The notes under the pieces: generated by a model
The model's input: the letters and a program-made list of their open reading frames with translations, nothing else
What the model was told of the DNA's origin: nothing
Databases searched by the model: none
Part shown: piece after piece, positions 52,552-52,889 of the stretch
Numbering within the stretch: position 1 is the stretch's first letter
Layout: the number at the start of each line of letters is the position of its first letter
DNA from: Escherichia coli
GTDB lineage: Bacteria; Pseudomonadota; Gammaproteobacteria; Enterobacterales; Enterobacteriaceae
Direction: 5' to 3' (one strand)
DNA length: 64,000 nucleotides
Assembly (NCBI RefSeq): GCF_003334315.1
Contig: NZ_QOWR01000014.1
Position numbers and translations under genes: made by a program

Positions 52552-52579
52552 ACTTTTCATACTCCCACCATTCAGAGAA

Positions 52580-52596
52580 GAAACCAATTGTCCATA
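52580..52596. promoter_or_regulatory. Candidate araO2 AraC half-site in the araC leader
   Basis: aaaccaattgtccatat contains the AraC half-site core TCCATA about 270-280 bp upstream of the PBAD start; assignment is by position and consensus, not verified. Confidence 0.5.
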
Positions 52597-52761
52597 TTGC
52601 ATCAGACATTGCCGTCACTGCGTCTTTTACTGGCTCTTCTCGCTAACCCAACCGGTAACCCCGCTTATTAAAAGCATTCTGTAACAAAGCGGGACCAAAG
52701 CCATGACAAAAACGCGTAACAAAAGTGTCTATAATCACGGCAGAAAAGTCCACATTGATTA

Positions 52762-52779
52762 TTTGCACGGCGTCACACT
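52762..52779. promoter_or_regulatory. CRP site of the araC-araBAD control region
   Basis: tttgcacggcgtcacact with one consensus TCACA half-site, at the expected distance upstream of araI. Confidence 0.6.
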
Positions 52780-52790
52780 TTGCTATGCCA

Positions 52791-52828
52791 TAGCATTTTT
52801 ATCCATAAGATTAGCGGATCCTACCTGA
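52791..52828 (+). promoter_or_regulatory. araI1 and araI2 AraC-binding half-sites (PBAD activation site)
   Basis: tagcatttttatccata (I1, 52791..52807) and tagcggatcctacctga (I2, 52812..52828) read directly; classic PBAD sequence. Confidence 0.93.
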
Positions 52829-52848
52829 CGCTTTTTATCGCAACTCTC

Positions 52849-52854
52849 TACTGT
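52849..52854 (+). promoter_or_regulatory. PBAD -10 hexamer (tactgt)
   Basis: ctctactgtttctccatacccgtttttttggatggagtgaaacgATG; the hexamer sits about 36 nt upstream of the araB start. Confidence 0.85.
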
Positions 52855-52889
52855 TTCTCCATACCCGTTTTTTTGGATGGAGTGAAACG

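Follow-up and report, generated by a model that had tools for sequence, protein, structure and literature searches.

The region between the divergently transcribed genes araC and araB is among the best-known regulatory regions in biology, and the established model of its control by AraC is summarized in PMC11983282, PMC4760080, and PMC2241862. AraC was reported to contact 17 bp in araI1, TAGCATTTTTATCCATA, within the native context GCCATAGCATTTTTATCCATAAGATTAGC (PMC2241862). A nucleotide-level sort-seq study gave the pattern TAGCxxxTxxxxCCxxA for araI1 and araI2 and the pattern xAxxxxxxxxxTCCATA as common to araI1 and araO2, placed araO2 and araI1 210 bp apart, and reported that the araC promoter (PC) and araO1 overlap (PMC11983282); araO2 has further been located 275 bp upstream of the start site (PMC12133099). 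The systems with which we compared the present locus are this same region in Escherichia coli K-12 MG1655, the corresponding region of Klebsiella pneumoniae, and the araC-PBAD cassette carried by pBAD-type vectors.

In the DNA analyzed here (a stretch of 64 kb, hereafter the window), positions 52552-52889 make up the complete araC-araB intergenic region, which is 338 bp long and fits exactly between two start codons: it begins at 52552, next to the araC start codon (minus strand, ATG at 52551..52549), and ends at 52889, the final base ahead of the araB ATG at 52890 on the plus strand. The region thus lies between divergent araC (-) and araB (+), and the annotation of the identical K-12 locus concurs. 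All 338 bp (52552..52889) are 100% identical to MG1655, and the adjoining araC (51673..52551, minus strand; 292 aa, an intact AraC regulator with a translation ending AVKLS) has zero nucleotide differences from MG1655 araC (WP_001300811.1). On the other side, araB (52890-54590, 566 aa), araA (54601-56103, 500 aa), and araD (56303-56998, 231 aa) are intact plus-strand reading frames without internal stops, and they follow one another (52890..56998) in the order of the K-12 annotation. Intact genes border the control region on either side (araC and yabI; araB, araA, araD, and polB), and in the annotated MG1655 record the match likewise falls between araC and araB, with yabI after araC, and araA, araD, polB, rapA, and rluA after araB. 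The initial annotation had cited yabI and polB as chromosomal context, and both are where a native locus would have them, except that yabI, which was called upstream, lies beyond the araC 3′ end on the same strand and is thus downstream of araC. Relative to MG1655, then, the 338 bp, the araC coding sequence, the gene order yabI-araC-araB-araA-araD-polB, and the positions of operators, CRP site, and promoter are the same, whereas differences occur only outside the control region, as scattered SNPs (e.g., 10 in araB/araA), an araA-araD spacer shorter by one 85-bp repeat, and an IS1 at 63611.

These direct observations of sequence identity, site positions and spacings, intact flanking genes, and chromosomal context make us nearly certain that this is the native, intact chromosomal araC-araBAD control region of an E. 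coli close to, and not identical with, K-12, in which the textbook AraC switch is to be expected; nothing that we found counts against this reading. A rival reading is that the region keeps a canonical appearance after its function has decayed, with the sites surviving as relics of a Shigella-like or host-adapted loss of arabinose use; in its favour are the divergence of the window from K-12 (0.8% over 14.7 kb), the IS1 end at 63611, and the disruption of this region in other E. coli, for example through ISApl1 in araI1 of strain E423. We consider decay very improbable here, given that araC and the entire control region show no differences from K-12, that araB, araA, and araD are full-length open frames, and that the one indel between yabI and polB is in the araA-araD spacer, where the window has one 85-bp repeat unit less than K-12. 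With the reading frames intact, functional decay of the operon was rejected, and the individual elements below are described as those of a native, intact region.

Positions of these elements are given relative to the PBAD start, which, from K-12 annotation, we take to be the A at 52863, 27 nt 5′ of the araB ATG. This start is consistent with the literature because it places the centre of araO2 at -275 (PMC12133099). The araI1 half-site TAGCATTTTTATCCATA (52791-52807, plus strand; -72 to -56) exactly matches the 17 bp contacted by AraC (PMC2241862) and is followed by the araI2 half-site TAGCGGATCCTACCTGA (52812-52828, plus strand; -51 to -35), the two forming 17-bp direct repeats with a start-to-start distance of 21 bp. 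The araI2 half-site overlaps by 4 bp the PBAD -35 hexamer CTGACG (52825-52830, plus strand), which is separated by an 18-bp spacer (52831-52848) from the -10 hexamer TACTGT (52849-52854, plus strand; -14 to -9); the araBAD mRNA then begins at 52863 with a native 27-nt leader, ACCCGTTTTTTTGGATGGAGTGAAACG (52863..52889, plus strand). Between araO1 and araI1 lies the site for CRP (cAMP receptor protein), TTTGCACGGCGTCACA (52762-52777), centred at -93.5, in agreement with the CRP-important positions of the sort-seq study (PMC11983282). The araO2 half-site GAAACCAATTGTCCATA (52580-52596, plus strand; -283 to -267) is in the same orientation as araI1, inside the araC leader and 211 bp from araI1, and it fits the published pattern xAxxxxxxxxxTCCATA (PMC11983282). 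The initial annotation had listed araI1, araI2, the PBAD -10 hexamer, and a CRP site at the expected spacing, and all four indeed occupy their published positions; the araO2 half-site, which it had also seen, need no longer be called a candidate, as its sequence, its distance from araI1, and its centre all match those published.

The region also contains two araO1 half-sites and the araC promoter, which were absent from the earlier list. The distal half-site TAACAAAAGTGTCTATA (52717-52733, plus strand; -146 to -130) has 2 mismatches to the half-site consensus, and the proximal half-site CGGCAGAAAAGTCCACA (52738-52754, plus strand; -125 to -109) follows at a start-to-start distance of 21 bp, equal to that of araI1 and araI2; their designations as araO1L and araO1R and their position range are presumably those of the footprinting literature. 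For PC, our own reading of the minus strand (52703..52731) gives a -35 hexamer TAGACA (52731..52726), a 17-bp spacer, and a -10 hexamer TGTCAT (52708..52703), which together would make a plausible araC promoter overlapping araO1L, so that the overlap of araO1 with PC at this locus depends on these putative hexamers. A simple scan of 52400-53000 for sigma-70 promoter and terminator consensus sequences reported nothing, neither PBAD nor PC. Both promoters are too weak or atypical for such a scan, which neither supports nor contradicts the site map, and weakness is expected of PBAD because it is an activator-dependent promoter.

Agreement on the placement of the sites comes from the position numbers of the sort-seq study, which map to the window with a single constant offset of +52548 (PMC11983282). 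With this offset, P43-48 and P254-259 land on the two TCCATA motifs, and T47, G268, A275, and G279 become T52595, G52816, A52823, and G52827, where the wild-type bases agree; the last three of these support araI2. The CRP-important positions P216, P227, P231, and P233 fall within 52764-52781, and the ‘ATTTGC-17 bp-TATGCC’ proto-promoter of the same study falls at 52761-52789 (PMC11983282).

How far motif matching can carry such assignments differs between single and composite patterns. Allowing up to 2 mismatches, the single AraC half-site consensus was found 38 times in the 64-kb window against 38.5 expected, which is the chance level, and therefore the weak half-sites (araI2, araO2, araO1) cannot be called from motif matching alone. 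In place of a single-motif search, we turned to composite patterns, to the identity with K-12, and to what is conserved in Klebsiella. The araI1/araI2 direct-repeat pattern occurs once in the window versus 0.00 expected by chance, TCCATA-N(200-210)-TCCATA occurs once versus 0.01 expected, and araI1 is the only exact match to the half-site consensus in the 64 kb. The weak half-sites were identified because the sequence is 100% identical to that of K-12, where they were mapped, and because they are conserved in Klebsiella.

The araC-araB spacer of K. pneumoniae (CP125156), which shares the divergent arrangement, is 74% identical overall to that of the window, and it conserves the operators, the CRP site, and the -10 hexamer. 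Identity is concentrated in the mapped sites, where 102/113 bases (90%) agree as opposed to 106/225 (47%) in the remaining spacer (Fisher exact p = 4e-16), which gives the site assignments independent support. Site by site, both araO1 half-sites are unchanged (17/17 and 17/17), as is the -10 hexamer (6/6), followed by the CRP site (21/22 over 52759-52780), araO2 (15/17), araI2 (14/17), and araI1 (12/17). Among the differences from Klebsiella are the low identity of the non-site spacer, just 47%, and changes in the variable centres of araI1 and araI2.

Since the sequence is identical to the experimentally characterized K-12 region, we infer that the established K-12 model of AraC binding, looping, and arabinose induction applies here as well. 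In the absence of arabinose, an AraC dimer would bridge araI1 and araO2, 211 bp away in the araC leader, and the resulting DNA loop would keep PBAD off and PC partly off. With arabinose, the dimer would be expected to shift so that it occupies araI1 and the neighbouring direct repeat araI2, and the 4-bp overlap of araI2 with the weak -35 hexamer would let AraC recruit RNA polymerase. Binding of cAMP-CRP at -93.5 would aid loop opening and be required for full activation, and AraC at araO1, overlapping the araC promoter, would down-regulate PC and thus make araC autoregulated.

Among complete E. coli genomes, the 338-bp region was present in 5399 of 5426 by megablast, with a median of 1 copy per genome, and the copies were nearly all single and chromosomal; 3931 records were at least 99% identical to the window, and 1468 were at 95-99%. 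Besides K-12 MG1655, the strains with 100% identity include C600 and J53 among many others. In six sampled E. coli variants (97.9-99.7% identity), ten spacer positions differ and only four of them fall within mapped sites: araO1 and the margin of the CRP site account for one each, and the variable araI2 centre for the other two, which are seen in B2/ST131-type strains. The B2-type strains E. coli Eco-15 and ST131 strain 4433 have TA->AG in the araI2 centre (window-equivalent 52822-52823), two further changes in the -35/-10 spacer (52831, 52837), and one in araO1 (52720), with 52645 also affected; the araC annotated in these strains has 846 nt (281 aa) versus 879 nt. Positions 52822-52823 of araI2 are naturally variable because Klebsiella has GG there and B2-type strains have AG.

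Two further observations concern sequence variation in this region. Position 52567 of the araC leader lies 16 nt ahead of the ATG and is A in both the window and K-12. At this position 6/6 sampled non-identical variants and the vector have G, so the K-12-type A may be a minority allele. In E. coli E423 (NZ_CM173464.1, 3253-4324), an ISApl1 element (IS30 family) sits inside the araI1 TCCATA at window-equivalent 52803/52804, with a 2-bp flank overlap, and this insertion should abolish AraC activation of araBAD in that strain.

Given that the same promoter is in wide laboratory use, a further question is whether the ara region could be the araC-PBAD cassette of a pBAD-type vector (for expression or recombineering), present through contamination of the assembly or through integration. 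For this comparison a single sequence, the engineered plasmid pCAGO (KY563785) with its araC-PBAD cassette, stood for pBAD/pKD46-type vectors. The resemblance that gives the idea its force is considerable: the cassette has the same architecture from araC through araO2, araO1, CRP, araI1, araI2, -35, and -10 to the start site, and pCAGO matches window positions 51711-52876 at 99.06% identity over 1166 bp. There are nonetheless 11 differences, two in the spacer (52567, window A and vector G; 52649, window C and vector A) and the other 9 in araC, and the window carries the K-12 base at 11/11 of these positions, so that the vector-lineage substitutions in araC and the spacer, as represented by this one vector sequence, do not occur in the window. 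Beyond 52876 (+14), pCAGO runs on with GGGAATTCGAGCTCTAAGGAGG; in place of the native leader it has a cloning site, a synthetic ribosome-binding site, and then a foreign gene. The window instead keeps the native leader GGATGGAGTGAAACG, a ribosome-binding site, the araB ATG, and the full araBAD; its native sequence does not break off soon after the PBAD start, and neither a cloning site nor a synthetic ribosome-binding site is joined to it.

We also looked for plasmid backbone (origin of replication, resistance marker, terminator) adjoining the ara region and found none, and positions 1-63610 are colinear with the K-12 chromosome, so that both flanks extend in chromosomal sequence for tens of kilobases. 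Vector origin is thus excluded: the window diverges from pCAGO, it goes on into its native leader and araBAD, and it follows the chromosome for 63.6 kb. We regard contamination or integration of a vector cassette, which was rejected on these grounds, as so improbable that it can be set aside, and a chimeric assembly of plasmid cassette and chromosome is likewise unlikely, given the native leader, araB, and the 63.6 kb of colinearity. The initial annotation had asked for alignment to the native araC-araB region and to a vector copy, and this alignment (100% to K-12, 99.06% to pCAGO, with flanks continuing into chromosomal genes) bore out its view that the region is native and should not be mistaken for vector contamination. 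Its description of the sequence as identical in form to the pBAD promoter holds for the architecture and fails for the individual bases, given the substitutions at 52567, 52649, and 9 araC positions and the departure of pCAGO after +14. The value of this result lies in quality control, in that a sequence shared with vectors is native here, in its proper place, and is not to be flagged as contamination, and in establishing that the window is a piece of the E. coli chromosome reaching from pdhR to rluA; it touches no open biological question.

The window as a whole sets the strain apart from K-12 itself. It is colinear with the K-12 chromosome over 1-63610 (63.6 kb, pdhR to rluA); the first 41.6 kb, from pdhR to leuB, are 99.89% identical to and colinear with MG1655, and a 14.7-kb comparison gave 121 substitutions (99.18% identity), clustered in thiBPQ. 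No K-12 differences occur in the 2.86 kb at 50334-53197, a stretch that runs from the 3′ end of thiQ through yabI, araC, and the control region and takes in the first 300 bp of araB. The SNPs relative to K-12 number about 100 in the 3 kb of thiB-thiP-thiQ (47282-50333) and 0 over the next 2.86 kb, and their density is about 0.3% in araB/araA. We see even chances that this mosaic at 50334-53197 marks a homologous-recombination tract through which a different background acquired a K-12-type araC/control allele. Mosaics of this kind are commonplace in E. coli, and even if such a tract were real, it would have no bearing on how the switch works.

Elsewhere in the window, the araA-araD spacer contains an 85-bp tandem unit (56109-56289; 2.1 copies, 94% matches between copies), of which K-12 MG1655 has one more copy, making its spacer 85 bp longer. 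At 56178-56243, one of these units meets the Rfam gathering threshold for naRNA4 (REP-derived nucleoid-associated RNA). Known RNA elements that one would expect were also found, namely SgrS (45345-45571, minus strand), a TPP riboswitch ahead of thiB (47328-47427, plus strand), the leu leader (39216-39365, plus strand), STnc40 between mutT and secA (11909-11978, minus strand), and two naRNA4/REP units between yacG and mutT (11312-11505, minus strand). A match to the Rfam family PssrA (‘plasmid-encoded Shigella sRNA A’) was found at 17625-17714 on the minus strand with 105.5 bits against a gathering score of 69, and by K-12 colinearity it sits at the chromosomal ftsA/ftsZ junction, which is an odd location, since the family is described as plasmid-encoded. 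The window is colinear with K-12 as far as 63610, inside the yabQ/yabP remnant region; the IS1 terminus (GGTAATGACTCCAACTTATTGATAG...) that starts at 63611 shares 91.8% identity with an IS1A copy of another E. coli and runs off the end of the window at 64000.
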